Shown: piece by piece, positions 19,172 to 48,414 of the stretch | Position numbering within the stretch: position 1 is the first letter of the stretch | Layout of the letters: each line of letters begins with the position of its first letter | DNA from: Acidobacteriota bacterium | Lineage (GTDB): Bacteria; Acidobacteriota; CAIWXX01 | Length of the DNA: 64,000 nucleotides | Direction: 5' to 3' | NCBI GenBank assembly: GCA_040755995.1 | Contig: JBFMAF010000010.1 | Location: 288,001-352,000 of the forward strand | The notes under the pieces: generated by a model | Told to the model about the DNA's origin: nothing | What the model saw: the letters and a program-made list of their open reading frames with translations, nothing else | Databases searched by the model: none | Position numbers and translations under genes: made by a program

Positions 19172-20257
19172 ATGCTCCCAATCGATCTGCTCTGTCCCGG
19201 GTGTTTTCGCGAGAAGGAGCCCGGCGCAGCCTGTGCGGGCTGCGGATTTGACGAATCGAGGCCCCGTTCGAGGTTGTTCTTGCCCTGCCGGACCGTCCTT
19301 CAGCAACTGTATGTGGTGGGGAGAGAACTGGGCAACCCCGGCAGCTTCGGCATAACGTACCTCGCTTGCGACACCGCCTTGCAGACGTGCGTCGCCATCA
19401 AGGAGTACTTCCCGCGCGGAATCGTCGAGCGAGGTCCGGATGGACTCGGCGTTCACGTCATTCGCGAGCGCGACAGGGAACTATACAGCGGCGGTCTTGC
19501 CGGCTTCCTTCGCGAGGCACAGACTCTCGCGAAGATCGATCATCCGAATGTGGTGCGCGTCCGGACGTTCTTCCAGTCGAACCAGACCGCGTACCTGGTG
19601 ATGGATCACGTCGAAGGCAGCTCGCTGGCGGAGCACCTCAGGCAGCATGGCGGTCGCGTTTCGGTCGAACAGGCGCTTCGCATCATGATCCCGGTTCTGG
19701 ACGGCCTCGCAGCTGTCCATGACAAAGGCTACCTGCACAACGACGTCACCCCGCAGAACATCTGCATCAGATCGGACGGTCGGCCGGTCCTGTTGGACTT
19801 CGGGGCAGCGCGACTGGCGCTCGGAGGACAGGGCGTGAGCCAGTCGGTTCTGGTGACGCCTGGGTTCGCGCCGTTCGAGCAGTACCGGCGAGGAGGTGAC
19901 CTGGGCCCGTGGACAGACGTGTACGGCGCGGCGGCGACGCTTTGCAAACTGCTCACCGGCGTTGTGCCGCCCGGAGCCCTGGACCGCAGACGGCACGATG
20001 ACTTCCTCCCGCCAGATCGCCTCGTGCCCTGGCTGTCCAGGGACATCGCCATAGCCATCACCGGCGCACTCGCTCTCGATCCACCAGCATGCACTCCGGA
20101 TCATCGTCCCAATACTCGATGCGCTGGAAGCGGTTCATCGCCGAAGCCTCCTGCACCGCGACGTCAAACCGCAGAATATTTTCATCGCAGCAGATGGCCG
20201 GCCGGTCCTGCTCGATTTCGGCTCTGCCAGAGCGTTTCTCGGCGAGTCCAGCCATAG
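19172..20257 (+). pseudogene. Zn-ribbon + Ser/Thr kinase, C-terminally truncated at about 20082 (first half of a fused pair)
   Basis: CPGC..CAGC, GNPGSFGITY, VAIKE, HNDVTPQN, DFG, PFEQ. Homology ends at ALALDP, followed by an out-of-frame tail. Confidence 0.8.
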
Positions 20258-21566
20258 CCTGACTGTCCAGTTCACCCCCGGGTTTGCGCCCTACGAGCAG
20301 TACCTTCGAAGAGGAGAACAAGGACCGTGGACCGACGTGTACGGGGCCGCCGCGACGTTCTACAACCTGATCACGGGGATAGTGCCGGAGAACGCGATCG
20401 AAAGGGAAGTCCATGACACGCTGGTTCCGCCTGCCAGGCTGTTCGGCGACATTCCCGCGGAGCTCAGCAACGCCGTGATGAGAGCGCTTTCTACTTTGCC
20501 GTCGCAGCGTCATCGGACGGTGAACGAATTCAGAGACGAGCTGACGGGTAAGAAGGTCCTGGCAGCAGAGTCGACCCCCTCCGAGCCCGACTCGACGACG
20601 ATGTTGTCGAGATCGAGGTCGCCGCTCAAGCGCCGTTCGCTGCGGCTCGGCATCGGTACTGTCGCGCTCGCGCTTCTCACGGGTCTCATCGGCTTCGTCG
20701 TCATTCGCGATCGGCTATTCCAAGGTGCCGCACCCGAGGACCCCGGGGCTCGGGCCGCCCCGGCCATGAACACCCTTCCAAAGCCGGCCTCCGATCGAAA
20801 GCCCGGCGAAGTCTGGACCGACCCGGCTACCGGAGTGGAGCTGGCCTGGTGTCCGGCCGGCAGCTTCATGATGGGGTCCGATGCGCTCAACGACGAGACG
20901 CCGATGCACGAGGTCAGTTTCGCGCAGGGCTTCTGGATGCAGACGACCGAGGTCACTCAGGCACTGTGGAAAAGGGTCGTGGGATCGAAGCCTTGGGTGG
21001 CGGTGAGAGGCGGCGCCCATGAGGTGCCGGACATCGATGACTGCCCGGGCATCTACGTGACCTTGTACGACGCCCAGCTGTTCGCGAATGAACTGAACCG
21101 GCGCGGCGGCGTTGGCTACCATGTCCCCTCCGAAGCAGAATGGGAGTACGCGTGCCGCGCCGGTTCCACGGGCATGTTCTGTTTCGGGGACGACGAGTCG
21201 GTCCTGGCGGAGTATGCCTGGTACGAAGAGACCGCAGCCAACATCGGGGAGAAATTCGTGCACCGGGTTCGGTTGAAGCGTCCGAATGCTTGGGGACTGT
21301 ACGACATGCACGGCGGCGTCTTCGAATGGTGCACGGACTGGTATCATTCGACCTACGCAGCCGCCCCCACCGACGGCAGCCCATGGCTCACGCCCCCGAC
21401 ATCGAGCCAAGTGAATCGCGGCGGCTGCTGGGCATCGAGCGCCGGCAGCTGCCGCTCAGCCAACCGCAACGACTACACACCCGCGAGCTTCGGCAGCCTG
21501 GTGGGCTTCAGGGTGGCGAAGTCCGACGCGCCGGCGACCGAGAGGCCACCGCAGCCCGGCAGTTGA
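20082..21566 (+). pseudogene. N-terminally truncated kinase-TM-FGE/SUMF1 gene (second half of a fused pair)
   Basis: The frame of ORF 20337 extends upstream as ALRIIVPILDALEAVHRRSLLHRDVKPQNIF..LLDFGSAR, with no start codon or N-lobe. Then TM and FGE domain (PSEAEWEYACRAG, NAWGLYDMHG, GFRV). Confidence 0.8.
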
Positions 21567-21595
21567 TGTCGAACCGGGAGGTTTGCCGCCTTTGA

Positions 21596-21622
21596 CTTGA
21601 TACTTGAGGGGGCTATATCAAG
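21596..21622. promoter_or_regulatory. Candidate enhancer (UAS): CTTGATA-N13-TATCAAG
   Basis: Perfect 7-bp inverted repeat starting 111 bp before a sigma54 motif; the same half-site occurs at 23606, 30607 and 42595. Confidence 0.65.
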
Positions 21623-21706: not shown

Positions 21707-21722
21707 TGGCATGACACATGCT
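21707..21722 (+). promoter_or_regulatory. Sigma54 promoter TGGCATGACACATGCT
   Basis: GG-N10-GC with TGGCA at -24 and TGC at -12; upstream of CDS 21837. Confidence 0.7.
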
Positions 21723-21836: not shown

Positions 21837-23294
21837 ATGAAGAGGGCAATCATCGCTGTGGCCGCGCTGATCATCCTCGGGACTCATGCCGAGGCTCAGC
21901 TATCGAAAGCAGACCTGGACGAAGCGAACAGGATGCTCAAGGGGACGCTGTATCTGCGAATCAACCTGGTCTGCGCTCATGATTGGGGAGATGTGAGCTT
22001 CTGGATGCGGGGGACGCGTTGGCAGACTGGTCTCGCGCTGAAGACCCTCACCGAGGTAGGGCCAACGGGCTCGAACGTCGATCTCAGCCAGCCAAGAGTT
22101 GCCGATTCGCTGAATCGCAGAGGTGTTGTCTGGTGGTTCCTCCCCAATGACGCCATCCGCAATGCAAAGGTCTACAAGACGGATGACGGGTTCTTGGAGA
22201 TCGGAGCTGAGGGCCTGCCGCCGAAGGACCTGGAAGTAACGATACGGCTTGTCGGCGCGAACAACCTCGACGACTTCAAGGCGGCGTTCCAACGGGCCTT
22301 TTCGAGGGTGCCGCTTCAAGACGATCACGCTGAGTGGCCACCGGATGTGCGCAAGGCAATCGGCGAAAGGCGGCCGCTCTTGGGCATGACAGCCGAACAG
22401 ACATATTGCGTCGTCGGCCGCCCAATCGAGATCCGGACGAGCGAGCTGGACGGCAAGAAAGTCGAGACATGGGTCCTTCTTCAGGATATCGGCCGCGGGA
22501 TGAGTCTCGGCGAAGTTCAAGACGTAGCGGATGATGTGACAACAGACTGCACCGGATTCCCCGTCTCGCTTGAGTTCATCGACGGTAGGATAGCCTCCAT
22601 CGGCTTCGTGCCGGCCGCGGCCGATTGGAACGCGCTCTCAGAGAAGGAGCAGAGCGAAGTAGAGAAGATGGTCGAGGGGACTCTGTACCTCCGAGTGAAT
22701 GCTGTAAGCAATTATCACCTGGAGGGTCGCACGGTGGTCTCGCCTGGGGGCTCCAACCTCGACATGGCCGTTCTGCCCGAGACATTCACCGAGAATGGGG
22801 CGATCTGGCGGTACTTCCCGAACGACGCTATTCGAGAGGCGGAGATCATCTGGGAAGATGACGGGTCCGTCTCGGTCTGGGCCGAGGGTGCTCCACCGAA
22901 GAAGGGCGAAGTCATGGTGCACCTCGTCGGTTTCATGAGCATGGACGAATTCAAAGCCGCCTTCAATCGCGCGTTCTCGAAGGTGCCGTTGCAGGACGAG
23001 CATCCCGAGTGGCCGATCGAGATCCGGAATGCGATTACCGAGAGACGCGTTGTGGAGGGGATGACGGCCGAGCAGGCCTACTGCGTCGTGGGCCGGCCGC
23101 TCGGACTGAGCAGACGCGATGACGCTGGCAAGCAGATCGAGACATGGCTGCCGCCGCAGGAGATCGGCATCGGGATGAGCGTAGAGGAGCTCAAAGAGGT
23201 CTACGCCGACCTGAAGGAGAACCGCACCGGCCTGCCGGCATCTATCGAGCTCATTGACGGCAAAGTGGTCTCGGTGACCGGCGCGGTGAAGTAG
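21837..23294 (+). CDS. Secreted protein with two tandem homologous modules
   Basis: AAGGAGG RBS; signal peptide; repeated GTLYLR.N, PNDAIR, FKAAF.RAFS.VPLQD.H.EWP and GMTAEQ.YCVVGRP (BamE/SmpA-like motif). Confidence 0.8.
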   Translation: MKRAIIAVAALIILGTHAEAQLSKADLDEANRMLKGTLYLRINLVCAHDWGDVSFWMRGTRWQTGLALKTLTEVGPTGSNVDLSQPRVADSLNRRGVVWWFLPNDAIRNAKVYKTDDGFLEIGAEGLPPKDLEVTIRLVGANNLDDFKAAFQRAFSRVPLQDDHAEWPPDVRKAIGERRPLLGMTAEQTYCVVGRPIEIRTSELDGKKVETWVLLQDIGRGMSLGEVQDVADDVTTDCTGFPVSLEFIDGRIASIGFVPAAADWNALSEKEQSEVEKMVEGTLYLRVNAVSNYHLEGRTVVSPGGSNLDMAVLPETFTENGAIWRYFPNDAIREAEIIWEDDGSVSVWAEGAPPKKGEVMVHLVGFMSMDEFKAAFNRAFSKVPLQDEHPEWPIEIRNAITERRVVEGMTAEQAYCVVGRPLGLSRRDDAGKQIETWLPPQEIGIGMSVEELKEVYADLKENRTGLPASIELIDGKVVSVTGAVK

Positions 23295-23605: not shown

Positions 23606-23635
23606 CTTGATACTCTATAAAGAACTTGATGTTCA
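23606..23635. promoter_or_regulatory. Candidate UAS: CTTGATA-CTC-TATAAAG, plus a further CTTGAT
   Basis: 17 of 18 nt identical to 42595-42612. Confidence 0.7.
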
Positions 23636-23728: not shown

Positions 23729-23744
23729 TGGCACGGTTCAGGCA
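23729..23744 (+). promoter_or_regulatory. Sigma54 promoter TGGCACGGTTCAGGCA
   Basis: TGGCAC with GG-N10-GC; 123 bp after the UAS start. Confidence 0.7.
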
Positions 23745-23898: not shown

Positions 23899-24714
23899 AT
23901 GGAGTCACATCTGAGGCCTCAACAAAGAGCTGGCTGGGTCATTCGCCTGCTCTCGTGGAAACGGCTGAACACCGCGTCATTGTTCTCCCTGTGGGGGGTG
24001 ATTGCGATTGCTTTGGGGGCTGCCCATGTTCTGTCGGGACAGGATCTCCCCGCTCCCATAGCCACCTTGTGGGTTGGCAAGAGCGTTGACCTGATCTGGA
24101 TCACAGGGGCGACGCAAATGGAATCGTTGCTGAGACTGGGTGAGAGCCCCCAAGGCGCCGACATCGTGGTCCTGGACAAGGGAGAACTGCCCAGGAACGT
24201 CTCCCTGGTTCTGCGCGGTTGGATCGAACAGGGTGGCGTTGTTATCGCTTTCGACCGGGCGTTCGGGTCAACCTGGCGGAATAGCGATCTCTTTGGCGGC
24301 CTGATCGAAGGAGCCGACAAGGGATGGGAGCCCCCCGAGGATAGTATGGCGTTCGTTAAGGGCTCGACCGTCTACGTGGCAGACAGGGAGCACCCCCTCG
24401 CCCAAGGGGTTGACACCATATACGTCGCCCGCGACCATACGATGGTCGGTGACGCCTCCGGAGAAAAAAACGCCGGCCTCGGCGTGTTCGACAGGTCCGT
24501 TGACGCATCCACACGGGCGATACTGAAAGCACAGAAGATTGGAGAGGCTGTGATCAGCAGTCGGCCTTTGCAGCCTGCGGGCGATGTCACGGTGGGTGTG
24601 TGCAAACAGGTGGGAAAGGGACGAGTCGTCATCCTCCCATCGCTCGACTACACAGCGGGCTCAACCGCCCGATTCATGGTGAACCTACTCGAATGGAGTG
24701 TTTCCCAGGAATAG
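23899..24714 (+). CDS. Exported hypothetical protein, possibly class-I GATase-like fold
   Basis: GGAGG RBS before ATG 23899; N-terminal hydrophobic segment; ADIVVL..LRGWIEQGGVVI, HPLAQGV, GKGRVVIL. Confidence 0.65.
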   Translation: MESHLRPQQRAGWVIRLLSWKRLNTASLFSLWGVIAIALGAAHVLSGQDLPAPIATLWVGKSVDLIWITGATQMESLLRLGESPQGADIVVLDKGELPRNVSLVLRGWIEQGGVVIAFDRAFGSTWRNSDLFGGLIEGADKGWEPPEDSMAFVKGSTVYVADREHPLAQGVDTIYVARDHTMVGDASGEKNAGLGVFDRSVDASTRAILKAQKIGEAVISSRPLQPAGDVTVGVCKQVGKGRVVILPSLDYTAGSTARFMVNLLEWSVSQE

Positions 24715-30496: not shown

Positions 30497-30512
30497 TGCA
30501 ACCGCGGTGCCA
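30497..30512 (-). promoter_or_regulatory. Sigma54 promoter TGGCACCGCGGTTGCA
   Basis: Perfect TGGCAC-N5-TTGCW match on the minus strand, upstream of the PQQ-propeller gene. Confidence 0.85.
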
Positions 30513-30591: not shown

Positions 30592-30617
30592 GCACTTTAT
30601 AAAGTGCTTGATATCGA
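30592..30617. promoter_or_regulatory. Candidate shared UAS: GCACTTTATAAAGTGC palindrome overlapping CTTGATATCGA
   Basis: 16-bp perfect palindrome between two divergent sigma54-like promoters; core ACTTTATAAAG identical to 42601-42611. Confidence 0.7.
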
Positions 30618-30698: not shown

Positions 30699-30714
30699 TG
30701 GCATGATTCGTGAG
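30699..30714 (+). promoter_or_regulatory. Sigma54-like promoter TGGCATGATTCGTGAG (non-consensus -12)
   Basis: TGGCAT at -24 and TGA instead of TGC at -12; 111 bp from the aligned UAS start, as at 21707. Confidence 0.5.
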
Positions 30715-30767: not shown

Positions 30768-32186
30768 ATGTGCGCAAGGTTGGTTCGAAGAGGGATTCAC
30801 TGCCTGTTTCTGGCCATAACGCTGGCGGCCCCCTGTGCCGCTGCCAGCAGCGGAGTCCGTTTGTCGGCGATGGACATACTCGTCACACCACCCGGGTTTG
30901 ACGATATCGGTGATGTGCTCGTGCAGCAGTTCGGGTGGCAGCAGGGTGTGGCATGGACCGAGATCCCGACCTCGTCCCTTGGGAACTACGATGCAATCAA
31001 GAACGCGAAGGTCATCTTCATCAACTGCTCCACGCTGTCCGTGGAGCCGGGGGCAGCGACTGCGTTGCGCCAATTCGTGAGTGCCGGTGGAGCCCTTTAC
31101 GCGTCTGACTGGGCCTATCGCTACATTCAGGACGGCTTTCCAGGATACCTGCAATTTCACGGAAGCCTCCCCACAGTTGGACCGGCAGGGCAGGTAGTGG
31201 CCCAGATCGTGGATCAAGGACTTCGCAACTACATCTACGGATCGTCGCCCGCAAGCACGATGATTCTCGATTTTGACCTGTCCTGGTGGGCAGTGCTGGA
31301 TCGCGCCCTGCGCTCGGATGTCTCGATTCTGCTACAGGGAGACATACCGGTGGCTCAGCGAAGTTCTGCATACCCCGCCACCGAGTCCTCATGGCGAAGG
31401 GCGGGCAGGACCTATTCGGAAAGCCAAGGGCTGACGTCGATGACTACCCATCCGCTGGCGGTGACGTTCCCGTATGGGGCTGGCAGGGTCGTGTACACAA
31501 GCTTCCACAACGAAGCCCAGACCGGGCCCGAGGAAAAGCGACTCATCGAGTACCTCGTCCTTGTTCCATATACAACACAGCTTCAGAACAGCCTCAACCA
31601 AGCCTTCGGCTCCAGAGGTCTGTCCACCGTCCGCACTGACCTGAACATGATAGACAGAGGATCCGAGGTGACGGGCACCTTTTATGACGTCACTGCTGGT
31701 GTGAATGCTGGGATTGGGCTCGCATGGGCCGGGAGCACCATGCGCCTGAGCGTCTACAGGCCTGACGGCTCGCCATACGCCGAGCAGACGGCCAGTACCT
31801 CGCCCGTGATCGTGACGATAGCGAAAGCCGATGCTTCGGGCGGCTCGTGGTCCTATCGCGTTGCCGCGGTGGATATCCCAAGCGACAGGTATCCGTTCGT
31901 CGTCGGCATCGGCACTGATGCGGCGAGCGGCGGGCCGCAGATAACGAAGATACAGTGCAGAAGGGCTACACCAGGGAGTCCGGCCACGATCAGGGGAACG
32001 GGCTTCTCAGCGACGCCTGGAAACAACACCGTGAAATTCGGAAGATACAAGGCCGCCATCAAGAAGGCCTCGCAGACGAAACTCTCGGTGACGATCCCAA
32101 CCAAGTGCAAGCGGGGAACGACCTACTCCGTTACGGTCACAGTCGGCGGGAAGACGAGCAATCCGTGGTCGTTCACTGTGGAATAG
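30768..32186 (+). CDS. Secreted protein: GATase-like N-domain, beta domain, Lys-rich C-terminal IPT/TIG
   Basis: GGAGG RBS; signal peptide; VIFINC..LRQFVSAGGALYASDWAY, GAGRVVYTSFHNE; C-terminal IRGTGF..TVKFG..SNPWSFTVE. Confidence 0.8.
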   Translation: MCARLVRRGIHCLFLAITLAAPCAAASSGVRLSAMDILVTPPGFDDIGDVLVQQFGWQQGVAWTEIPTSSLGNYDAIKNAKVIFINCSTLSVEPGAATALRQFVSAGGALYASDWAYRYIQDGFPGYLQFHGSLPTVGPAGQVVAQIVDQGLRNYIYGSSPASTMILDFDLSWWAVLDRALRSDVSILLQGDIPVAQRSSAYPATESSWRRAGRTYSESQGLTSMTTHPLAVTFPYGAGRVVYTSFHNEAQTGPEEKRLIEYLVLVPYTTQLQNSLNQAFGSRGLSTVRTDLNMIDRGSEVTGTFYDVTAGVNAGIGLAWAGSTMRLSVYRPDGSPYAEQTASTSPVIVTIAKADASGGSWSYRVAAVDIPSDRYPFVVGIGTDAASGGPQITKIQCRRATPGSPATIRGTGFSATPGNNTVKFGRYKAAIKKASQTKLSVTIPTKCKRGTTYSVTVTVGGKTSNPWSFTVE

Positions 32187-38672: not shown

Positions 38673-40451
38673 TTACTCCGCCGTGGCATCTTCCTGAGGA
38701 GCAACGGCACCAGGGTTCCCCCCACTGGCTCCATGAGACGGCAAGAGTGACTTGGACCCGGCGTGCAGCGGAAGTACCGTCTGCTCGATGAGGCGTGTCT
38801 TCGCGGTCGTCGGGGATGCAGCTGAAGGCACGCCGCAGTCCACGATCTCGTAGAGCCCCACAGATATCTCGCCTCCGCTCGTCACACCGGACAAAAAGCT
38901 GTGGCACCTGTTCGGAGCGAGTATCGTGCTGGGAGTCCACGTGCCGTTGAAGCTGCCGGCGCAGGTGGTTGAGAGCGTCCAGTAGAGAGTCACCTTTCCC
39001 GGTGTCGCTTCAGCATAGCCTTCCCACGTGGCGGGTGTGCTGCCGTCTGTCTTGACCGAGCTTCTGCTCACACCGGCAACCGTCCCAGTGAACGTGGTTG
39101 AGCCGGAAGGGGTGCAGTAGACCGTGTTGTAGATGCCCCACTGGGTCATGCATTTCCCAGCTGAAGGCAGCGAGAGCGCCACGAGGCCGCCATCGTCCTC
39201 ACTCCCCCATGCGTAGATGGTGTCGTTCCCTATCGCGACCTGCGCGCTTTCGTGGACCTCCCTGCCGAGGTCGTACGAGAAGAGCAGCTTGCCCGTCGCC
39301 TCATTGAGCGCGTATACGTAAGTGCCGGCCTGGAAGTAGACGACGCCATTCGCGACCGAAGGGTTGCGAATCGTGGAGACTCCCGAGTAGCTCCAGATCT
39401 CCTTGCCGGTCTTCGCATCGAGCGCGTATAGAAGCGTGTCGGCAGGCACATAGACCCGCTTCCGTTTGGTGTTGCAGGCGAAGGCTCCGGTCATCGACCT
39501 GCCCCACAGGTCCGCTTTCCAGAGGATCTTCCGGGAACTCACTTTGTAGGCCGCTACGAGTCCCTTGCCCCAGTCTTCGTACTCGACAAGCAGGATGTCT
39601 CCACAGAGGCAATAGCGGTCTGGTTCCCAGTAGAGGCCCGTCGGGTCATCGTCTGGGGTGTCGTATGTGATTTCCACCTTCTTGCTCGACGCGTTCAGGC
39701 GCATCATGTGCTCAGGCCCGCTAGCGTCCTCGAGTTCCGCCCGCGCGAACAGCCAGTTCCCCTTCAAGAGGACGTACGGACCGGAAAAGCCGATGCCGTC
39801 GTTCTCCTTGCTCAGGTACCAAAGGACTTTGCCAGTGGACTTGCTCAGTGCATAGAGCCGGCCAGCCCCCTCGAAGAAGGTGTTCTCGACCACGTAGATG
39901 GTCTTCTTGGCTTCATCGACAGATGGAACGCAATTCGCGGCCTGGTTGCTCGAGAAATCGAAGACCGGCTGGGCCGTCCAGATCTGTTTCCCGTTGCGTC
40001 CGACAGCCGCCAGGCTCGTCGTCGTCATGTCGTTGATGAAGTAGAAGAGGACCCCGTCAAGAGAGAGCGCGGGCTGTGAGGCTTGCCAGAAGCTCGCGTC
40101 GCCATACTCCCAGTCGATGGTGCCGCAGCTATCAACCGCCAGGAGTGGATTTTCGGGAACTGTCGCGTATACGACGCCTTTGTAGTGGGCCGGTGAACCC
40201 TTCGAATCGAAGGCTGGCTTATCGTCGCAGAAAAGTCCCCACTTCCGCTTGAGCAGGCGCACGTTGGACGGGCTGATCTTCGTCTTGCCGGGGTAGAACG
40301 ACGTGTACTGGTCATCGTAGCCGAAGTGCGGCCAATCGACGGCATCGACAGGGAGAACGCCGAGAATAGCTGCAACGAACGGCGCTCCAACCCAGCGCAA
40401 CGCCGGTCGCAGGGACCGCGCCACCATTGCAGCCGCCCTGAAAAGAATCAT
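38673..40451 (-). CDS. Secreted PQQ-type beta-propeller protein with Cys-containing C-terminal domain
   Basis: GGAGG RBS; DWPHFGYD, LYALDAKTGKEIWSY, YALNEATGKLLF repeats. Confidence 0.85.
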   Translation of the reverse strand: MILFRAAAMVARSLRPALRWVGAPFVAAILGVLPVDAVDWPHFGYDDQYTSFYPGKTKISPSNVRLLKRKWGLFCDDKPAFDSKGSPAHYKGVVYATVPENPLLAVDSCGTIDWEYGDASFWQASQPALSLDGVLFYFINDMTTTSLAAVGRNGKQIWTAQPVFDFSSNQAANCVPSVDEAKKTIYVVENTFFEGAGRLYALSKSTGKVLWYLSKENDGIGFSGPYVLLKGNWLFARAELEDASGPEHMMRLNASSKKVEITYDTPDDDPTGLYWEPDRYCLCGDILLVEYEDWGKGLVAAYKVSSRKILWKADLWGRSMTGAFACNTKRKRVYVPADTLLYALDAKTGKEIWSYSGVSTIRNPSVANGVVYFQAGTYVYALNEATGKLLFSYDLGREVHESAQVAIGNDTIYAWGSEDDGGLVALSLPSAGKCMTQWGIYNTVYCTPSGSTTFTGTVAGVSRSSVKTDGSTPATWEGYAEATPGKVTLYWTLSTTCAGSFNGTWTPSTILAPNRCHSFLSGVTSGGEISVGLYEIVDCGVPSAASPTTAKTRLIEQTVLPLHAGSKSLLPSHGASGGNPGAVAPQEDATAE

Positions 40452-40546: not shown

Positions 40547-42340
40547 CTACGAATGGTCCGCGTCAGGCCCGCGAATGCCCAGCTTCTTCATCTTCCACCA
40601 CAGCCCCTGAAACGTGATCCCCATCTCTCGCGCCGTCTTCGACTTGTTCCAGTTGTTCTTGTCGAGCAGCCCGAGGATTCTCTCTCTCTCGTCGTCGGTG
40701 GAGATACCCGCAGTCGCAGCCACGGGGTGTTCCTTACGCTCCCGGCGAATGTGCTCAGAGAGCATGCCGTGACCGATCACCTCGGCATCGGCGGTAAGCG
40801 TCACGAGCCGGTAGATCTCGTTCTTTAGTTGTCGCACGTTCCCGGGCCACGCGTGGCTCTGGAGGGCTTCGTGCGCAGCCCGCGAGAACCCGCCGATTGT
40901 CTTCTTCTCGCTCTTGCAGAACTGCCCCACGAAGTAGTCGATCAGCACCGAGATGTCTTCCCTACGCTGCCGCAGCGGCGGGACGACCATCTCATGCTGG
41001 GCGAGGCGGTAATATAGATCTTCCCGAAACCGCCTTTCGTTGATAAGTCTGGCAAGGTCGGAGTTGGTAATCGAGATGATCCGCAGGTCCACCTTCGTGG
41101 GGCTGACTCCTCCAAGCCTGAAGAACTCGTGCGACTCGATGGCGCGGAGCAGCTTGGCCTGCAGCATGAGCGGCATGTCCCCGATTTCGTCCAGCACCAG
41201 AGTCCCACCTGATGCCATCTCCAACTTCCCATGCTTGCTCCTGTGGGCACCGGTGAACGCCCCCTTCTCGTGCCCGAACAACTCGGACTCGAGCAGTGTC
41301 TCCGGGATCGCGGCGCAGTTGATCGCCACGAACGGCCGGGACGCTCTCTTGGACGAACGATGGATCAACCTCGCCAGCAGCTCCTTCCCTGTCCCGCTCT
41401 CTCCGCGGATCAAGACCGGGATGTCGCTGAGCGCGATCTTGCGCGCCTGCTGGCAGAGGCTGAGCATCTCCGGATTCTGAGTGACGATCTCATCTTCGGG
41501 CTCCCCGAGTCTGATTGTCTGATCCTCGGAGGGGCCCGAGGGCACCCTCGACAGGACCTCGATCTCCATCGCCAGAAGCTGCAGGAACCTGTCCAACAGC
41601 TCGCGATTCTCGCCGCCCCGCTGTGCAGGCACGTGGATCAGGGCACCCGCCTTGTCCTTGAGCTTGACTGGAAAACAGGCGAATCCTCGTGCCTCGCAGA
41701 ACAGGCGCAGCTCAGAGCAGTTCGCAACGAGAGGCCCCAGCTTCTCGATCTCGCTCAGGACTTCACGGCTCTCCGAGCGGCCCTTCTGGGCCGAGACGAC
41801 GGACAGCTCATCACCGCTGGAGGTGAGCACATAGACGCTGCCAAGGTCCGGTATGGTTGGCAGCAAGACTGACAGGAGTCCGAATACCTCGTTGAGCTGG
41901 GCGCCGTCGACACCCGCCTGCATCAGGCGCCGGAGCACGTCCGAATAGGCATCGGAAGCATCCTTGGTCTTGACTGTGCCAAGATCCCGATCATCAGCTC
42001 CGGCGAGCCGCGTGGAGATCTGTTTGGGTTGGGACACGACGTCGAACTGCTCCGCCTCACCCTCCCTCAGCGTGAACTCCATGGTCTTGATGCTGAACGA
42101 CTCGCCCATGCGCAGCTCAGCCTCCTCGACTCGGACTCCATTCACCACTGTGCCGTTCATCGAACCGAGGTCGCGCAGTATCACATGATCGCCATGTTCT
42201 TCGATCGTCAAATGCGACCTCGACACGAATTCCTCGTCCAGCACCAGGTCGTTTTCCGAGCCCCGTCCAACGCGCACGATCGGCCTCCGGATGCAGAAGT
42301 TCCTGAACAGCCCGTCGCGCTGGTAGGACAAGTACTTCAC
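40547..42340 (-). CDS. Sigma54 enhancer-binding protein: FHA - GAF-like - AAA+ - Fis HTH
   Basis: FHA VGR..SRSH..DLGSMNGT; Walker A GESGTGKE; intact GAFTGA; LDEIGDM; FREDLYYRL; WPGNVRQL; NWNKSKTAREMGI. Confidence 0.95.
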   Translation of the reverse strand: MKYLSYQRDGLFRNFCIRRPIVRVGRGSENDLVLDEEFVSRSHLTIEEHGDHVILRDLGSMNGTVVNGVRVEEAELRMGESFSIKTMEFTLREGEAEQFDVVSQPKQISTRLAGADDRDLGTVKTKDASDAYSDVLRRLMQAGVDGAQLNEVFGLLSVLLPTIPDLGSVYVLTSSGDELSVVSAQKGRSESREVLSEIEKLGPLVANCSELRLFCEARGFACFPVKLKDKAGALIHVPAQRGGENRELLDRFLQLLAMEIEVLSRVPSGPSEDQTIRLGEPEDEIVTQNPEMLSLCQQARKIALSDIPVLIRGESGTGKELLARLIHRSSKRASRPFVAINCAAIPETLLESELFGHEKGAFTGAHRSKHGKLEMASGGTLVLDEIGDMPLMLQAKLLRAIESHEFFRLGGVSPTKVDLRIISITNSDLARLINERRFREDLYYRLAQHEMVVPPLRQRREDISVLIDYFVGQFCKSEKKTIGGFSRAAHEALQSHAWPGNVRQLKNEIYRLVTLTADAEVIGHGMLSEHIRRERKEHPVAATAGISTDDERERILGLLDKNNWNKSKTAREMGITFQGLWWKMKKLGIRGPDADHS

Positions 42341-42476: not shown

Positions 42477-42492
42477 TGCAGCAATCGTGCCA
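42477..42492 (-). promoter_or_regulatory. Sigma54 promoter TGGCACGATTGCTGCA in front of the activator gene
   Basis: TGGCAC-N5-CTGCA, one mismatch to consensus, minus strand, about 135 bp upstream of the activator start. Confidence 0.8.
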
Positions 42493-42576: not shown

Positions 42577-42615
42577 TTTGACTCTAAAGAGGGGCTTGAT
42601 ACTTTATAAAGAGTC
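42577..42615. promoter_or_regulatory. Candidate shared UAS: TTTGACTCTAAAGA...CTTGATA-CTT-TATAAAGAGTC
   Basis: AT-rich imperfect inverted repeat midway between two divergent sigma54 motifs. Confidence 0.7.
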
Positions 42616-42706: not shown

Positions 42707-42722
42707 TGGCACCGTCTTTGCA
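42707..42722 (+). promoter_or_regulatory. Sigma54 promoter TGGCACCGTCTTTGCA
   Basis: Perfect TGGCAC-N5-TTGCW; 65 bp before CDS 42787; 112 bp after the UAS at 42595. Confidence 0.88.
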
Positions 42723-42786: not shown

Positions 42787-43260
42787 ATGACTCAACGAGC
42801 TAGATTTCGATGGATTGCGCCCCTGACGATCCTGGGCATCCTGACCGCCGTGGATGGCGCACTCGCGCGACCCAGCGCCGTACCCAGCCTGGTCGGGCAG
42901 TGGAAGATCGTCGGGATGACAGGCGCCAACTACGAAGATGTCTCCGATGTGAATTCCACGCCGGAGTTCGTCTCGGGCGCACCGGCCGACGCTCTGATCG
43001 TGATTACCGGCCAGAAGGCCGGCGCCTTCGCTGGCTACCTGACCGTGGAGGGCGAGAAGCTTCTGCTGACCGGCGTGATCGGCAACGACAACTCAGTGAT
43101 CATGCAGTTCGCAAGCGGCAACAGCCGCCATCTGTTCAGTGGCAAGTACTCGGTAGCCGGCAAGAAGAAGCAGATCAAGGGCAGCTACCACGGCTACGAG
43201 GAGTTCACCGCATCGATTCCCTCGATGTCGAATGGATCTATGGAATTGGAGAAGAAGTGA
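42787..43260 (+). CDS. Small secreted beta-barrel-like protein
   Basis: GAGGAGG RBS; signal peptide ending in ALA; PSLVGQWK motif. Confidence 0.75.
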   Translation: MTQRARFRWIAPLTILGILTAVDGALARPSAVPSLVGQWKIVGMTGANYEDVSDVNSTPEFVSGAPADALIVITGQKAGAFAGYLTVEGEKLLLTGVIGNDNSVIMQFASGNSRHLFSGKYSVAGKKKQIKGSYHGYEEFTASIPSMSNGSMELEKK

Positions 43261-43418: not shown

Positions 43419-45938
43419 ATGAATAGAGCCTTGATGCGACCTCATGGGTTGAGATTACTGGTTGGTCTGGCGGCGCTACCTGTGCTGTGTGAAGGCCACC
43501 GTGTTGTTAGCGCTGCTCACGCCGCGCGCGACAGTACCGGCAAGGTGGTCTACGTGAACAAGAGTGCCGCGGGCGCGCCTCACGACGGAACATCCTGGGA
43601 GAGGGCGTTCCTGACGGTGAAGGAGGGCATCAAAGCGGCGACGGCCGGTGACGAGGTGTGGGTGGCCAAGGCCACCTACGTCGAGTGTATCGATCTGAAG
43701 GATGGGATTCTGCTCTATGGCGGGTTCAACGGTACGGAAACAGCAAGGGATCAGAGAGACTGGAAAAAGAACATCACGATCTTGGATGGCAATCGCAAAG
43801 GCTGTGTCGTGGATGTGGCGCTCCTGCTGAAGGAAACCAGGGTGGATGGATTCACCGTACGGAACGGCAAAGCCGACAGTGGAGGTGGGATAAGCCACTA
43901 CGCTAGCCCGCTTGACCTCCTCACCATCGCGAACAACATCATCTCTGGCAACTCCGCAGTGGAAGGCGGCGGCATCTTTCTTGGTGCAGAGGCCAGCGTC
44001 ATCGACAATATCATCAGTGGAAACACGGCCGAGGAAGCCGGCGGGGGTATCCTCTGTGCCTTGTCCTGGGTCACCATTAACGGAAACGAGATCAGAGATA
44101 ATGACGCGCGCGATGCTGGCGGCATCTACGGTGATGAGATGGATGGCGAAATCTCCAACAACATTTTCTCCGGGAACTCTGACTTCGCCATCCGCTGCAA
44201 CACCGCTAGCAATGCAAGGATCCTGAACAACGTTCTCTCTCTGAATGAAAGGGGCGGTATCGTCTGCTATCTCTCGAATCCGAAGATATACAACAATACG
44301 ATCTTCGGGAATGGGCTGTACGAGGATAGTACGGGAGAGGGCATACTCCTGAGAAGCTCATCTCCGTCGATCGCGAACAACATCGTGGCTTTCAACAAGA
44401 TTGGCATCGATGCCACCGACTCCAAGACCCATCCCCGCTCCAACTGCATCGCCAGAAACACAACAGACTACGACGGAATCAAGCCGGGCGAGGGGGATTT
44501 CTCCTCAGATCCGTTGATCAGTCCTGTATCTGCGGAATTCCACATCATGTCGATATCGCCGTGCATCAACAGGGGTGACAACAGCTTCGTGGAGAGCAGC
44601 TGGCTGGACATCGACGGCGAACCGCGAATCAATGGCGGCGCAGTTGATGTTGGGGCGGACGAGTTTCACTATGGATCCACGACGAAGAAGCCCAATGCGC
44701 CAAAGGAGTTGAAGGCCAAAGCAAAGAGCAAGGAGGCAATCGAGCTCAAGTGGAAGGACAACTCGAACAACGAATCAGGGTTCACCATCGAGCGGCGTGA
44801 CGGCGGCCAGGGAGTCTGGTCGACGGTCGCCGTCGCAGATGTGAATGCGAAGAAGCATAGCGATGGCGAGCTGAAATCCGGCACCACATACCAATACCGG
44901 CTCCGGGCATTCAACATCATCGGCTACTCTGGATACTCGAACGTCTCCCAAGCCAAAACGAAAGCGATCATGGAACTCCGGGCGCTGAATGACACGCCTG
45001 CAGGGATTGGAAGCCATGAGATGATCGACCTCGCCTCAGCCGCAACGCCCTCGGATGCACCCCGCAGCCTGGGAAGCCTCTTGGCGGTCGATCCTATAGT
45101 CGGAGACCTGCAGTATGTGCCCGCCACTGGACCGAACGGCTTCTTGCAGGGCAGCCCCAAGTCCGAGGGGTGTCGAGCCGCGAACGAACAGCAGTTCCGT
45201 CGCATTCTCACGCGGAACTTCCTTTTGATGAAGACGGAGGTGACACAGGGCATGTGGGCGGAGCTGAAGGACGCACAGCCGAGTCTACCTGCCAACAAGA
45301 GCCGCTTTCGCGGAGAGAACAGACCAGCGGATGGCGTTACATGGTTCGAGGCAGTCCTGTTCGCCAATGTCCTTTCGAGCGAAAGAGGGTTGAAGCGCTG
45401 CTACTATGCGGACAGCTCCAGGAAGATCCCCATCGACGCGGGCAACTACAAGTCCGGCAAATACTACTGTGACTTCAGGGCCAACGGTTTCCGTCTGCCT
45501 ACGGAGGGAGAGTGGGAGTATTTCACGCGCGCAGGCAGAAGCGGGCCCTTCTGCATAGGCGAGCCGAAATACAATTCGACCACTTGTCACAACCATGGGC
45601 CCGGCCTCTTCCCTGGCTTGGAGTCGGCAGCCTGGTTCAGCGCCAATGCCGATGGAACCACGCATGCAGTCGGCGAGAAGAAAGCCAACTCATGGAACCT
45701 GCGTGACGTACACGGCAACGTCAAGGAGTGGTGCTGGGACTGGGAGGAGCGGTATCCAACAGGAACACAAACCGACTATGCCGGCCCATCGTCGAGTTGG
45801 CTGAATGCCCGAATCTGCCGTGGCGGGAGCTGGAACACCGGTGCGTCCACCTGCAGATCCGCGTCCCGCGACTGGGGACCCCCGGCCCAGCGTTCCTGCG
45901 TCTACGGTTTTCGGCTCGTCAGGGTAGTGGGCAAGTGA
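43419..45938 (+). CDS. Secreted protein: right-handed beta-helix + FN3 + FGE/SUMF1 domain
   Basis: DGTSWERAF, NNIISGNSA..GGGI repeats, SPCINRG..DIDGEPR..VDVGADE, LKWKDNSNNESGFTIER (FN3), FRLPTEGEWEY, RGGSW, YGFRLV. Confidence 0.88.
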   Translation: MNRALMRPHGLRLLVGLAALPVLCEGHRVVSAAHAARDSTGKVVYVNKSAAGAPHDGTSWERAFLTVKEGIKAATAGDEVWVAKATYVECIDLKDGILLYGGFNGTETARDQRDWKKNITILDGNRKGCVVDVALLLKETRVDGFTVRNGKADSGGGISHYASPLDLLTIANNIISGNSAVEGGGIFLGAEASVIDNIISGNTAEEAGGGILCALSWVTINGNEIRDNDARDAGGIYGDEMDGEISNNIFSGNSDFAIRCNTASNARILNNVLSLNERGGIVCYLSNPKIYNNTIFGNGLYEDSTGEGILLRSSSPSIANNIVAFNKIGIDATDSKTHPRSNCIARNTTDYDGIKPGEGDFSSDPLISPVSAEFHIMSISPCINRGDNSFVESSWLDIDGEPRINGGAVDVGADEFHYGSTTKKPNAPKELKAKAKSKEAIELKWKDNSNNESGFTIERRDGGQGVWSTVAVADVNAKKHSDGELKSGTTYQYRLRAFNIIGYSGYSNVSQAKTKAIMELRALNDTPAGIGSHEMIDLASAATPSDAPRSLGSLLAVDPIVGDLQYVPATGPNGFLQGSPKSEGCRAANEQQFRRILTRNFLLMKTEVTQGMWAELKDAQPSLPANKSRFRGENRPADGVTWFEAVLFANVLSSERGLKRCYYADSSRKIPIDAGNYKSGKYYCDFRANGFRLPTEGEWEYFTRAGRSGPFCIGEPKYNSTTCHNHGPGLFPGLESAAWFSANADGTTHAVGEKKANSWNLRDVHGNVKEWCWDWEERYPTGTQTDYAGPSSSWLNARICRGGSWNTGASTCRSASRDWGPPAQRSCVYGFRLVRVVGK

Positions 45939-46260
45939 CAAATCGCGGATTTCGCGAGAACTCTTGCGGATGTAGAAACGAGATTCCTTCTTTCCTGGAG
46001 GGATGAAATGAGAGCATGCACAGCCGAGCATCCAATGTACCTCCGTGCCGTGGGGCTGGAAGCTCCTGGCAGTGACATCTACTCGATGAGCACCACTTGT
46101 TGCTACGCCGACATGGGTGTGAGTCGCAGGGCGTTGCGCTACCCGGAGCGAGCCGGTAAGATCGGTGCCGGCAACGGGCGGTGAGTTCACGCGGTCTGTC
46201 CCGCCGAGCAGTGTGCGGAATCTCAGGGACTGGGACCCGGAGAAGTGCCGGAGGCAAATC

Positions 46261-48414
46261 ATGAGGCAAGGCTATCATTGGTGGGAGAGGTCGGCTCGTT
46301 CTGCACTTGTTCGGGTTTTCTGCGTGATCACTATGGCCCACACGGGCATTTCTGGCCATGCCCAGAGCACCCCCGCTCCATATGCGACGAAGACGGTGTC
46401 GCCCCATGGGGTCGTGAATCCAGACGGCACCATCGCAACGGACAGGGGGCTGGCATGCGCGGTCGACCTTCGGGGGTGGGACGTGACACTCGACTCGCAG
46501 CGTGGTCCCGTTCTCAGGCCCAAGCATCGGGCAATGGGATCTACGCTTGCGCCCGGCTGGTCGGCGCTCGCCAATCAGGGGCTCAACGAGTATGTCTGCG
46601 CTCTGGCGGTGGTCGGGAGCGATCTGTATGTGGGTGGATATTTCACGCAGACGTACGACGGGAGCGTGAAGAACCTTAACTACATCGCGAAGTACAGCGG
46701 TGGCACTTGGTCGGCGCTGGCCAACAACGGGCTGGACAACGCTGTCCACGCTTTGGCGGTGGCCGGGAGCGATCTATATGTCGGTGGAGCGTTCTCGCAG
46801 ACGTACGACGGGAGCGTGTCGGACCTCAACGGGATCGCTAAGTATAGCACCGGGACGGGATCGTGGTCCGCCCTCGCCAATCAAGGGCTGGGCGGCGGCG
46901 CGGTCTTCGCTCTGGCCGTGAGCGGGAGCGATCTCTATGTCGGCGGTAACTTCACGGACACACACGACTGGAGTGTCGAGCTCAACAACATCGCTAAGTA
47001 CAGCGGTGGCACGTGGTCCGCCCTGGCCAATCGAGGACTGGACGCCCATGTCATAGCCCTCGCGGTGGTCGGGGGCGATGTGTATGTCGGCGGTATCTTT
47101 ACGCAGACATACGATGGGAGCGTGGGGAACCTCAACAACATCGCCAAGTATAGCGCCAGCAAATGGTCCGCCCTGGCGAATCACGGACTAGACAACATCG
47201 TCCTGTCTCTAGCGGTGGTCGGGAGCGATCTGCATGTGGGTGGAGACTTCAGGCAGACAGCCGACGGGAGCGTGACCAACCTGAATTACATCGCCAAGTA
47301 CAGCACCGGCACATGGTCGGCGCTAGCCAACAAGGGGCTAGACGGTCATGTCCACGCTCTGGCGGTGGTCGGGAGCGACTTGTATGTCGGTGGAGGGTCG
47401 GGGCACACAGCCGACGGGAGCGTGGGGAATCTTAACGAGATCGCCAAGTACAGCGGCGGCACGTGGTCCGCCCTCGCCAACCAGGGCCTGAGCCCCCAAC
47501 CGGTCAATGTTCTGGCGGCAAGCGGGAGCGATCTATATGTCGGTGGAGATTTCATGCGGACATATGACTGGAACGTGGTGAACCTCAACCACATCGCCAA
47601 GTACTCCACGTCTTCCTGTTCCGCTCCGTCGATCACGACGCAGCCCGCGAGCCAGACCATTGGGACGGGCAGCCAGGCCACTCTCACGGTCATCTCTTCC
47701 GGCGATGAGCCATTCCACTACCAGTGGTACCAGGGCGCGACCGGCGCTACGACAACGCCCGTCGGCACGGATTCGAGTTCCTTCACAACGCCCGCGCTCA
47801 CCGCCAACGCGCAATACTGGGTCCGGGTGACGAACGCGTGCGGCCAGGCCGACAGCAACACAGCCACGATCACCGTGGTCGCTGGCTGCGTCGCCCCGAG
47901 CATCGCCACCCACCCGCAGAGCCAGACGATCACCAGAGGATCGACAGCCACCCTGACAGTGATCACCACCGGCGATGCCCCGATGCACTACCAGTGGTAC
48001 CAGGGTGCGACCGGAGACACCTCGAATCCGGTCGGCACCAATTCCAATTCGTACGCGGCCTCGCCGCTGACAACGACGAGCTTCTGGGTCCACGTCTCGA
48101 ACGGATGCGGCCAGGCCGACAGCAACGCGGCGGTGATCACGGTCAACTTCGCGTCCGGCGTGGTCATCACCGGCATAAGGAGCAAGAAGAGCACCCCGAA
48201 CTCGCCAGCGAAGATCAAAGGAACGGGCTTCGTCACCGACAAGAAGAAGGTCACGGTGAAGTTTGGAACCCTAAAGGCAACGGTGATCAAGGCGACCACT
48301 ACCGCCATCACCGTGAAGATCCCGAAGAGATGCAAGAAGGGCACAACATACCAGGTTGTCGTGACGATCAGCGGCAAAGGCGCGAGCAACCCATGGCCGT
48401 TCACAGTCAAATGA
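46261..48414 (+). CDS. Secreted protein: seven about 50-aa repeats (7-blade propeller) + 2 Ig-like + Lys-rich C-terminal IPT/TIG
   Basis: GGAGG RBS; 7x WSALAN.GL...ALAV.GSDLYVGG.F..T.DGSV..LN.IAKYS; 2x PSI.T.P.SQTI..YQWYQG; IKGTGF..SNPWPFTVK. Confidence 0.9.
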   Translation: MRQGYHWWERSARSALVRVFCVITMAHTGISGHAQSTPAPYATKTVSPHGVVNPDGTIATDRGLACAVDLRGWDVTLDSQRGPVLRPKHRAMGSTLAPGWSALANQGLNEYVCALAVVGSDLYVGGYFTQTYDGSVKNLNYIAKYSGGTWSALANNGLDNAVHALAVAGSDLYVGGAFSQTYDGSVSDLNGIAKYSTGTGSWSALANQGLGGGAVFALAVSGSDLYVGGNFTDTHDWSVELNNIAKYSGGTWSALANRGLDAHVIALAVVGGDVYVGGIFTQTYDGSVGNLNNIAKYSASKWSALANHGLDNIVLSLAVVGSDLHVGGDFRQTADGSVTNLNYIAKYSTGTWSALANKGLDGHVHALAVVGSDLYVGGGSGHTADGSVGNLNEIAKYSGGTWSALANQGLSPQPVNVLAASGSDLYVGGDFMRTYDWNVVNLNHIAKYSTSSCSAPSITTQPASQTIGTGSQATLTVISSGDEPFHYQWYQGATGATTTPVGTDSSSFTTPALTANAQYWVRVTNACGQADSNTATITVVAGCVAPSIATHPQSQTITRGSTATLTVITTGDAPMHYQWYQGATGDTSNPVGTNSNSYAASPLTTTSFWVHVSNGCGQADSNAAVITVNFASGVVITGIRSKKSTPNSPAKIKGTGFVTDKKKVTVKFGTLKATVIKATTTAITVKIPKRCKKGTTYQVVVTISGKGASNPWPFTVK
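46558..47610 (+). repeat. Seven intragenic tandem repeats of about 150 bp
   Basis: Nucleotide-level recurrence of tggtc(g/c)gc(g/c)ct.gc.aa and gggagcgatct.tatgt.gg.gg. Confidence 0.9.

Follow-up and report, generated by a model that had tools for sequence, protein, structure and literature searches.

We describe a predicted signalling module of an Acidobacteriota bacterium, encoded between positions 19,172 and 48,414 (the span) of a 64,000-nucleotide stretch of its genome that we call the window (contig JBFMAF010000010.1 of assembly GCA_040755995.1, positions 288,001 to 352,000; G000:C10:288001-352000). Its central component is a sigma54 enhancer-binding protein, hereafter the activator, in which an FHA domain, a flexible linker and a GAF-like domain precede the AAA+ domain. 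We propose that two membrane kinases tipped with a lectin-fold domain, K2 and K3, switch this activator through threonine 125 (Thr125) of its linker, and that the activator in turn drives genes for exported proteins through the enhancer TAT(A/C)AAG-NN-CTT(G/T)AT. The chances that this complete chain is right are about even, and its parts differ in strength. From the sequence comparisons given below, the link between activator, enhancer and promoter is very probable, the switching of the activator by FHA recognition of phosphorylated Thr125 is likely, and K2 and K3 are, with a little less assurance, probably its cognate kinases.

The source genome (G000; assembly of 7.74 Mb, 99.8% complete) was compared with two genomes of the same class, one from a second genus (G001) and one from a third family member (G002, 98% complete). 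An earlier note on this DNA had proposed a pathway from kinase through FHA domain to sigma54 and had made it depend on rpoN, which is present in G000 in a single copy (one Sigma54_DBD match, E 2e-60). The genome also holds 41 clear sigma54-activator matches among 48 listed, 72 Ser/Thr kinase open reading frames (ORFs), 30 FHA matches and 21 FGE-fold matches; seven ORFs combine an FHA with a sigma54-activator domain. Pfam was run on 42 ORFs of the window.

An activator with a conserved linker threonine

The activator gene and its predicted phosphorylation site lie as follows.

40547..42340, minus strand: sigma54 enhancer-binding protein of the order FHA, linker, GAF, AAA+, helix-turn-helix (HTH); 597 aa, GTG start at 42340; from Pfam, alignment and AlphaFold2 (AF2)
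41966..41968, minus strand: codon of Thr125, which lies in coil directly ahead of the first GAF helix and is predicted to be bound, once phosphorylated, by the protein's own FHA domain

Pfam recognizes FHA (E 2e-16), Sigma54_activat, AAA lid and HTH_8 domains in this protein and no receiver. With its Walker A motif, intact GAFTGA loop (G360-A-F-T-G-A365) and C-terminal HTH, in a genome that has rpoN, it belongs with the enhancer-binding proteins. The key FHA residues are intact in the alignment (G25-R26, S40-R41-S-H43, N62-G63). Alignment and Pfam thus agree with the earlier note, which had seen both the FHA residues and the GAFTGA loop and had missed the GAF domain. An AF2 model of residues 1-283, built from 30 sequences (mean pLDDT 85.8), places the FHA domain at 1-97, disorder at 103-121, then coil, a helix from 128 and a GAF-like domain. 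Structural comparison matches the middle domain to GAF folds at Z 10-12, among them those of the Aquifex activators Nlh1 and Nlh2. The FHA fold comes closest to the FHA domain of EmbR (Z 14.8), and the whole 1-283 model has DgcB as its top hit in Foldseek. The modelled input is accordingly an FHA domain, a flexible linker and a GAF-like domain. From 4 sequences, AF2 modelled the full-length protein poorly (pLDDT 60.9), and a predicted complex between activator residues 1-270 and the kinase domain of K3 scored 0.17 against a mark of 0.32, gave no answer and was not used. Named myxobacterial matches to residues 1-290 span only about 22-32% of the query.

Thr125 was the sole invariant linker residue in our first alignment of 4 sequences, and its column holds Thr in 49 of 55 in a wider one. 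In loci fetched later it is Thr in 32 of 40, with 7 more shifted by one column. We therefore counted positions back, ungapped, from residue 134 in the 80 distinct sequences kept from a pool of 96. Thr stands at offset 9 or 10, the Thr125 position, in 77 of these 80 family members and Ser in none, and no other offset ever has more than 14 Thr. Three members lack the threonine, two of which are the only two members with a broken FHA core. FHA domains favour phosphothreonine over phosphoserine. This preference, the conservation of Thr125 and the self-threonine switch of DgcB together lead us to predict Thr125 as the phospho-acceptor of the activator. What is expected of a self-binding FHA protein is found here: a conserved threonine, never serine, in the same chain and beside the disordered segment 103-121.

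Eight members retain the threonine despite a non-canonical FHA pocket, mostly with Arg26 replaced, so that the coupling between Thr125 and the FHA domain is not strict. In one activator subgroup (L242, L246, P0206, P0240, P0302) Trp takes the place of FHA Arg26 and the linker Thr is kept; L242 carries two family activators back to back.

These eight members, together with the clear GAF fold and the structural likeness to EmbR, leave some room for an unlikely alternative in which the FHA domain does no more than dock the activator on a phosphoprotein or an autophosphorylated kinase, in the style of EmbR and PknH, or a small molecule is sensed by the GAF domain, Thr125 being structural. Phosphorylation of EmbR by PknH indeed depends on the EmbR FHA domain, according to the passages cited (PMC6213207). 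However, a structural threonine or helix cap is usually exchanged for Ser, Asp or Asn, and Ser is found in 0 of 80; the helix begins three residues after Thr125, and the threonine is lost along with the FHA core in two members. These points argue for the phospho-acceptor reading.

Conservation of Thr125 is silent on the sign of the switch. Phosphorylated Thr125 might instead close on the FHA domain and shut the activator off, the kinases then repressing the regulon, as the self-binding phosphothreonine tails of GarA and OdhI are inhibitory. We hold this to be improbable, since AAA+ activators need assembly and bridging of phosphothreonine and FHA promotes assembly in TIFA-like systems. DgcB, the closest case coupled to an enzyme, is moreover activated by binding of its tail, as the cited passages describe it (PMC6733907).

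Predicted enhancers and sigma54 promoters of the span

The putative promoters and the clusters of enhancer half-sites (the latter without strand) are listed below; the genome positions in brackets are those that score as high or higher.

42707..42722, plus strand: strong sigma54 -24/-12 match, score 18.6 (34 genome positions), before the small exported gene; conserved in G001
30497..30512, minus strand: strong sigma54 match, score 21.1 (8 genome positions), before the gene of an exported PQQ-type propeller
21707..21722, plus strand: moderate sigma54 match, score 13.9 (153 genome positions)
42477..42492, minus strand: moderate sigma54 match, score 12.5 (290 genome positions), before the activator gene
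23729..23744, plus strand: weak sigma54 match, score 8.7 (2314 genome positions), 106 bp from cluster A
30699..30714, plus strand: poor sigma54 match, score 5.1 (11774 genome positions), with GA, not GC, at -12
23606..23630: enhancer cluster A (CTTGATACTCTATAAAG-AA-CTTGAT), from the motif scan
30595..30614: enhancer cluster B (TATAAAG-TG-CTTGATA), halfway from 30512 to 30699
42595..42611: enhancer cluster C, CTTGATACTTTATAAAG, midway between the divergent sites 42492 and 42707
21596..21622: degenerate enhancer cluster D, two half-sites at a spacing unlike that of the other clusters

Six sigma54 sites, each near the same upstream motif, had been claimed. Scored with a matrix built from 39 strict matches outside the span, four of them do well (30512, 42707, 21707 and 42492), while 23729 is weak and 30699 lacks the -12 GC. 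The motif itself is real and local, in four clusters rather than six, two of which are shared by divergent pairs and one of which, at 21596, is degenerate. The statement that five sites precede exported proteins and one the activator holds, the N-termini being signal-peptide-like by eye; the 30699 site precedes an exported TIG protein and, further on, K2 and K3. Across the genome there are 41 strict sigma54 matches, against 8 for the reversed pattern. Among 1979 candidates scoring above 9, seven have at least two half-sites 60-160 bp upstream, and 30512, 42707, 42492 and 21707 make up four of the seven.

Three exact half-sites (CTT(G/T)AT or AT(A/C)AAG) within 25 bp occur together three times in the 7.7 Mb of G000, always in the span, in a scan that covered 5005 half-sites; the motif was derived from these same sites, so the count shows locality only. 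Cluster B lies about 93 bp, and cluster C about 108 bp, from each flanking divergent sigma54 site. The geometry is what would be expected of an enhancer palindrome 80-150 bp upstream of -24/-12 promoters. An NtrC-like model of the motif, CTTKAT-N5-ATMAAG, was discarded in favour of this everted palindrome: it occurs exactly only twice in G000 and is absent from the corresponding locus of G001 (G001:C149).

Positive feedback of the activator through the 42492 site is possible. As a general rule of the family, autoactivation through a sigma54 promoter before the activator was rejected, with matches directed toward the activator in only 2 of 21 and 0 of 39 family loci.

Could another protein, such as IHF or a paralogous activator, bind the motif, its location near the activator being incidental? 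The half-site resembles the IHF core WATCAA-N4-TTR, and paralogues at C36 and C18 of G000 have similar half-sites. Yet a strict IHF match is present in 0 of the 4 clusters and a core match in 1 of 4, the core also occurring in 4 of 39 other strict promoters. The motif keeps a distance of about 100 bp upstream, accompanies the activator gene in genomes across the phylum and varies with the recognition helix. Binding by another protein is thus very improbable, and we continue with the activator as the predicted ligand of the enhancer.

Conservation in related genomes

The arrangement recurs in G001. Its contig C149 encodes an activator orthologue (55% identical). Behind this gene, and on its strand, stand two kinase-TM-FGE genes (TM denoting a transmembrane helix) that are 50-51% identical to K3. 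On the divergent side lie the enhancer CTTTATAAAG-GG-CTTGATAC, a sigma54 match about 100 bp on, and a gene for a 157-aa exported protein with 44% identity to the product of 42787-43260. By contrast, neither the activator family, nor a full-length kinase of the K2/K3 subfamily, nor the exact motif was found in G002. Co-occurrence of kinase-FGE genes and FHA activators in relatives, a check suggested in the earlier note, is seen in G001 and in the joint non-detection in G002, and is not general: most family loci have no adjacent kinase.

The exact sequence TATMAAGNNCTTKAT occurs in three places in G000 and one in G001, and the reversed control pattern in none. Only one of the G000 copies, C16:72155, falls outside the span. 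A sigma54-type match stands 102 bp from it, and the exported-looking gene that it precedes (C16:71201-71974) shares 59% identity over 174 residues with gene three of the divergent run in G001, a gene cut by the contig end. By these sequence relationships, the C16 gene has relocated and its enhancer and promoter have moved along with it. A looser form of the palindrome occurs at 16 sites in G000, seven of which have a sigma54 match 60-175 bp away, compared to 3.4% of random positions; some of the 16 belong to paralogues or to another activator. Separately, C49:184600, C49:220451 and C1:25154 of G000 carry related palindromes, TAT[CG]AAC-N3-TT[CG]AT, whose sigma54 matches are nearly identical and of a different sequence type, and are probably the regulon of a different activator.

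The receptor kinases

Three kinase loci lie in the span.

33306..35303, plus strand: K2, with a Cys-rich N-terminus, Hanks kinase, TM helix and FGE/C-type-lectin fold; from Pfam and TM scan
35373..37394, plus strand: K3, same layout as K2, canonical HRDIKPQN loop, likely start 35382
19172..21566, plus strand: K1, a broken kinase locus, whose first piece, a kinase domain alone, loses its frame at a junction near 20085

A single hydrophobic helix separates the kinase and FGE domains in both K2 (residues 354-372) and K3 (residues 365-383), and basic residues precede it. This single helix and the residues before it point to a kinase on the cytoplasmic side and an FGE fold outside. K3 has the full Hanks set, comprising Gly loop, VAIK lysine, HRDxKxxN and DFG, together with the single TM helix and the outer domain, while the catalytic loop of K2 is atypical (HRDVNPWN, Asn for Lys). 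Membrane kinases with an FGE domain after the TM helix, as the earlier note had described them, are thus intact in K2 and K3; the third, K1, is a broken fusion of two genes. After about 20085 its frame shifts into a second kinase, of which the C-lobe, TM and FGE regions are present. Kinase sequence of 418 bp stands there in duplicate, and a 132-nt kinase segment is repeated 418 bp later at 75% identity. Most likely K1 is a former tandem pair like K2/K3, fused by deletion; an assembly error at the junction is possible.

K1-K3 group in one clade with the G001 pair and two metagenomic proteins, and no full-length member of the K2/K3 subfamily was found in G000 outside the span. In K1, in K2/K3 and in the G001:C149 pair alike, one HRDxKPxN kinase is joined by one with Thr or Asn for Lys. 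One may speculate that these are pairs of an active and a regulatory kinase forming obligate heterodimers of active and inactive partners; the trees leave orthology between the pairs undecided.

Among solved structures the K3 outer domain is closest to PvdO (E 3e-32) and to TvpA, the variable protein of a diversity-generating retroelement (DGR; 1e-24), ahead of true FGE enzymes (7e-14). In FGE (SUMF1) the catalytic Cys pair of the C-terminal loop reads CxxxxC. The aligned kinases share one conserved Cys in the C-terminal segment and no pair, and an enzymatic role of the outer domain was set aside. We likewise rejected K1-K3 as DGR targets: the 3' ends of K1, K2, K3 and the gene at 43419 have no second copy in G000, and neither of the two reverse transcriptase matches lies near them. 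Without a template repeat in the genome, K1-K3 appear to be receptors of fixed specificity.

A complete-looking DGR does occur in G002 (L140; G002:C86:930-4400), with a TM Ser/Thr kinase with a C-terminal lectin-fold domain as its target. This kinase, whose outer domain is 47-48% identical, precedes a reverse transcriptase and a template repeat of 85% identity over 140 nt, in which 19 of 21 mismatches fall at template adenines. The finding supports a ligand-binding role for the outer domain. FHA genes and a PP2C gene follow the DGR kinase on the contig.

Relatives of K3 were also collected from metagenomes (70 loci), where a sigma54 AAA domain was present in 0 of 27 annotated loci longer than 8 kb. 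Some of these contigs (L151-L158) carry tandem arrays of two to four K3-related kinases, some with the FGE fold, with no sigma54 activator in the stretch. Genes of a type VI secretion system (T6SS) were not found among the 42 window ORFs scanned, and the three PP2C matches of G000 are all on other contigs.

The activator family across Acidobacteriota

With a profile built on the first 283 residues, the family was detected in at least 11 of 401 genomes of the phylum (six candidates scored per genome), in 41 of 72 genomes in the order of G084 and in 2 of 10 in the order of G125, and about 34 of the best 150 representative proteins belong to it; a locus search with the whole activator gave mostly generic AAA matches. 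The view of the span as a one-off island therefore does not stand, the activator being one member of a wider Acidobacteriota family. To the 21 loci of a first set we added a second set of 40, drawn from 84 matches in the G084 order and spread over genera, 39 of which had enough upstream DNA. The 400 bp before each activator start were scanned for promoters and compared with shuffled sequences.

A divergent TGGCA-N7-TGC was present in 14 of 21 first-set loci (shuffle mean 0.10, max 2) and in 21 of 39 second-set loci (shuffle mean 0.14). The palindrome TAT[ACG]AA[CG]-N2-5-[CG]TT[GTC]ATA was found exactly in 7 of 21 (shuffle 0.02) and 7 of 39 (shuffle 0.015), and with at most one mismatch in 15 of the 39 (shuffle 0.61). 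Behind the divergent promoter the gene has a signal-peptide or lipoprotein-like start in 9 of the first 14 cases, judged by eye. Sorted by recognition helix, 59 loci show the palindrome (at most one mismatch) in 21 of 35 with x[QRMH]GL, in 2 of 15 with another helix and in 3 of 9 left unclassified. By this comparison the enhancer palindrome follows the recognition helix across the family. The half of the earlier interpretation that runs from activator through sigma54 to exported proteins is thus well supported by independent genomes.

In four loci (L243, L244, L247 and L248; G084:C20, G155:C44, G296:C55 and G196:C39) the divergent sigma54 match lies between clpB and the activator and has no ORF behind it. 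The stretch behind it, of about 100 nt, is closed by a long stem (z -2.3 in L248, -2.4 in L244), a candidate for a sigma54-dependent small RNA under the family activator.

Kinases near family activators are of several types. Within G000, 4 of 7 FHA activators have a kinase within 5 kb, against 5 of 34 other activators, and 10.5% of the genome is that near a kinase. A kinase lies within about 5 kb in ten of the 21 loci of the first set; in the second set one is adjacent in 6 of 40 and within 5 kb in 9 of 40. The adjacent kinases of the first set comprise the FGE pair (G000, G001), propeller-TM-kinases of the Reg_prop/Y_Y_Y type (six loci), a TPR kinase and a short kinase. The propeller type was assigned by Pfam on five loci (L144, L241, L249, L114 and L256), in which the Reg_prop/Y_Y_Y propeller sensor of hybrid two-component systems is joined to a TM helix and a C-terminal Ser/Thr kinase; the sixth, L250, was assigned as an orthologue of L249. 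With adjacent kinases so mixed or absent, the receptors of the family appear interchangeable, most members probably using kinases encoded elsewhere.

The same observation bears on whether K2 and K3 serve the activator at all. The Thr125 switch and its regulon could be real and the signal come from other kinases, K2 and K3 being co-inherited, outputs of the regulon or partners of other FHA proteins. G000 has its 72 kinase ORFs, most family loci lack an adjacent kinase, and in the window K2 and K3 lie 3.2 kb from the activator on the opposite strand, and downstream of the 30699 site and enhancer B, reading in the direction of that site. Against this stand the tandem order activator-kinase-kinase in G001, the joint non-detection in G002 and the lack of another full-length member of the subfamily in G000 outside the span. 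We regard a signal from other kinases as a minority possibility, with perhaps the best claim of the alternatives, and keep K2 and K3 as the probable partners.

Exported proteins encoded in the span

Export was called by eye from signal-peptide-like N-termini.

42787..43260, plus strand: small exported protein, 157 aa, without known family; 44% identical to the G001 gene at the same position
43419..45938, plus strand: exported beta-helix, FN3 and FGE-fold protein; from Pfam
46165..48414, plus strand: exported repeat (propeller-like), Ig and C-terminal TIG protein; from Pfam and repeat scan
38673..40451, minus strand: exported PQQ-type beta-propeller, directly behind the activator; from Pfam
28187..30394, minus strand: exported PQQ-type beta-propeller; from Pfam
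30768..32186, plus strand: exported protein with C-terminal TIG; from domain search
21837..23294, plus strand: exported two-repeat protein without known family; from domain searches
23899..24714, plus strand: exported-looking protein with a faint ThuA-like match below the cut-off; from domain search

The 157-aa protein, kept at the same position in G001, is a conserved predicted target of the module. Pfam and NCBIfam gave no family for it, and atlas searches found no named family for either the 157-aa or the 485-aa exported protein, the neighbours of the former being unnamed. TIG-like domains related to the tails of 30768-32186 and 46165-48414 occur in 57 ORFs of G000, in 47 of them at the very C-terminus, and a remnant is seen near G001:C149:13506; this lineage-expanded tail is possibly a surface anchor or sorting domain. 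A paralogue of 38673-40451 (42% identical) at G000:C32:60162, minus strand, has its own strict sigma54 match without two or more half-sites upstream.

Proposed mechanism and points against it

In the mechanism we propose, an outside ligand would bind the C-type-lectin-fold domain of K2 and K3 and cluster the kinases, as their topology and the parallels with TagR/PpkA and DGR-type kinases suggest. The kinase domain would then phosphorylate Thr125, whose conservation in the flexible FHA-GAF linker singles it out. By analogy with DgcB, GarA/OdhI and TIFA, the FHA domain would bind phosphorylated Thr125 of the same or a neighbouring subunit, so that FHA and GAF domains are rearranged and the AAA+ ring assembles. 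The activator, presumably bound to the enhancer about 100 bp before the promoters, a geometry that is seen, would open the sigma54 promoters. The output would be exported propeller, Ig/TIG and beta-helix proteins and the conserved small protein, with probable roles in binding or processing at the surface.

Several observations, besides the eight members with a non-canonical pocket, weigh against this mechanism. The GAF-like domain offers a second input that is independent of kinases. In K2 the Lys of the catalytic loop is missing, and K1 is broken. The 72 kinase ORFs and 30 FHA matches of G000 leave many other pairings; a nearby kinase is missing from 11 of 21 first-set and 31 of 40 second-set loci (several contigs end early), elsewhere in the family the adjacent kinase is of another type, and the pairing with FGE kinases is seen in two genomes. 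The palindrome of cluster C in the window is imperfect, and the two close paralogues at C36 and C18 could cross-bind through their similar half-sites. Finally, the family counts are not independent events, because the loci are related and some second-set proteins overlap earlier matches. On balance the kinase-to-FHA half of the earlier interpretation is inferred, with support that is real and indirect; it has gained from the conservation of the cluster in G001, the joint non-detection in G002 and the conserved phosphothreonine candidate in the activator.

More tentatively, the activators may form a phylum-level class of FHA-GAF proteins that each carry their own Thr125, with interchangeable receptor kinases, bridging by phosphothreonine and FHA, and a family enhancer that tracks the recognition helix. 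Its receptors, at the same tentative level, would be of the C-type-lectin fold here and two-component-type propeller or TPR kinases elsewhere.

Relation to known systems

FHA-domain enhancer-binding proteins of Myxococcus xanthus were reportedly described by Jelsbak, Givskov and Kaiser in 2005 (PNAS 102:3010), who are said to have proposed a link between Ser/Thr kinases and sigma54 that was not reconstituted. Those activators share with ours an FHA input on a sigma54 AAA+/HTH protein and a proposed kinase-to-sigma54 link. Unlike them, the proteins described here belong to a family of their own in Acidobacteriota and have a GAF-like domain; they come with an enhancer that can be read, a candidate regulon, a conserved pair of lectin-fold receptor kinases and a named candidate phospho-site. 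The class is known in outline. We take the regulatory unit to be real and conserved, and the model of the earlier note to explain it best, refined in that the phosphothreonine probably lies on the activator itself. Literature listings and abstract openings, with few subscription papers among them, yielded no paper on this activator family, its enhancer or a self-threonine switch in enhancer-binding proteins, and none showing how any FHA-bearing sigma54 activator is switched.

Individual parts of the module have counterparts elsewhere. In DgcB of Bdellovibrio the FHA domain reads a conserved Thr of its own chain and gates the output domain by rearrangement or bridging of subunits, and GarA and OdhI are also self-binding FHA proteins, according to the passages cited (PMC6733907). 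Those proteins carry the Thr in an N-terminal tail and have a diguanylate cyclase or a metabolic inhibitor as output, whereas here it lies between FHA and GAF domains and an AAA+ activator is the output. The TagR-PpkA-Fha1 system of the Pseudomonas aeruginosa H1-T6SS combines an FGE-fold domain, a membrane kinase and an FHA protein, and is activated by kinase dimerisation; in the passages cited, TagR is a periplasmic protein of its own and the chain ends in T6SS assembly, explicitly not in gene regulation (PMC13713981). Here, in contrast, kinase and FGE fold form one protein, and the FHA domain is part of a transcription activator. In Mycobacterium tuberculosis the membrane kinase PknH phosphorylates the FHA activator EmbR and raises its promoter binding, as described in the same source as above (PMC6213207); EmbR differs in being neither a sigma54 AAA+ protein nor dependent on enhancer looping. 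DGR-diversified kinase-CLec proteins join a Ser/Thr kinase to a C-terminal ligand-binding domain of the C-type-lectin fold, and for the cyanobacterial ones the passages cited define no transcription output (PMC7517822). K1-K3, unlike kinase-CLec proteins, have no template repeat.

Other genes of the span and its surroundings

The span also carries unrelated genes, namely a nucleotidyltransferase/HEPN pair, a CAAX protease and gene remnants. The nucleotidyltransferase and HEPN genes (26232-26976, minus strand) make up an inserted toxin-antitoxin module that resembles type VII. Headless or decayed genes with TIG-domain ends at 27043-27714 and about 32875-32990 (both minus strand) are signs of turnover of exported-protein genes. 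A kinase-TPR gene (8780-11401, plus strand) lies outside the span and an HD-domain gene (48677-49297, minus strand) at its right edge. The G+C content of the span is 60.8%, compared to 64.0% in the flanks and 62.7% in the whole of G000, and the genes flanking the span are unlinked in G001. A tRNA scan of the window found none, no integrase was present among the 42 ORFs scanned with Pfam, and no repeat flanks the span among the largest 20 of 26 repeat families. With this mild dip in G+C, no tRNA and no integrase, the span is not shown to be a mobile island.

Conclusions

The locus supplies all parts for reconstitution, namely the candidate kinase K3, Thr125, the FHA pocket, the enhancer and the strong promoters 30512 and 42707, and these are small enough for transfer into E. 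coli, which has sigma54. A kinase-to-sigma54 proposal that is twenty years old (2005) is thereby reduced to a single-residue experiment. If the proposed switch is true, it would constitute a third general mode of activating enhancer-binding proteins, beside receiver phosphorylation and the binding of a ligand or protein. If the phylum-level class is also true, it would amount to a two-component-like system that works on threonine rather than on His and Asp, with a ring assembly like that of TIFA in animal innate immunity. The family enhancer makes regulons readable from sequence in dozens of genomes, and the module would offer a handle on the role of many Acidobacteriota receptor kinases.

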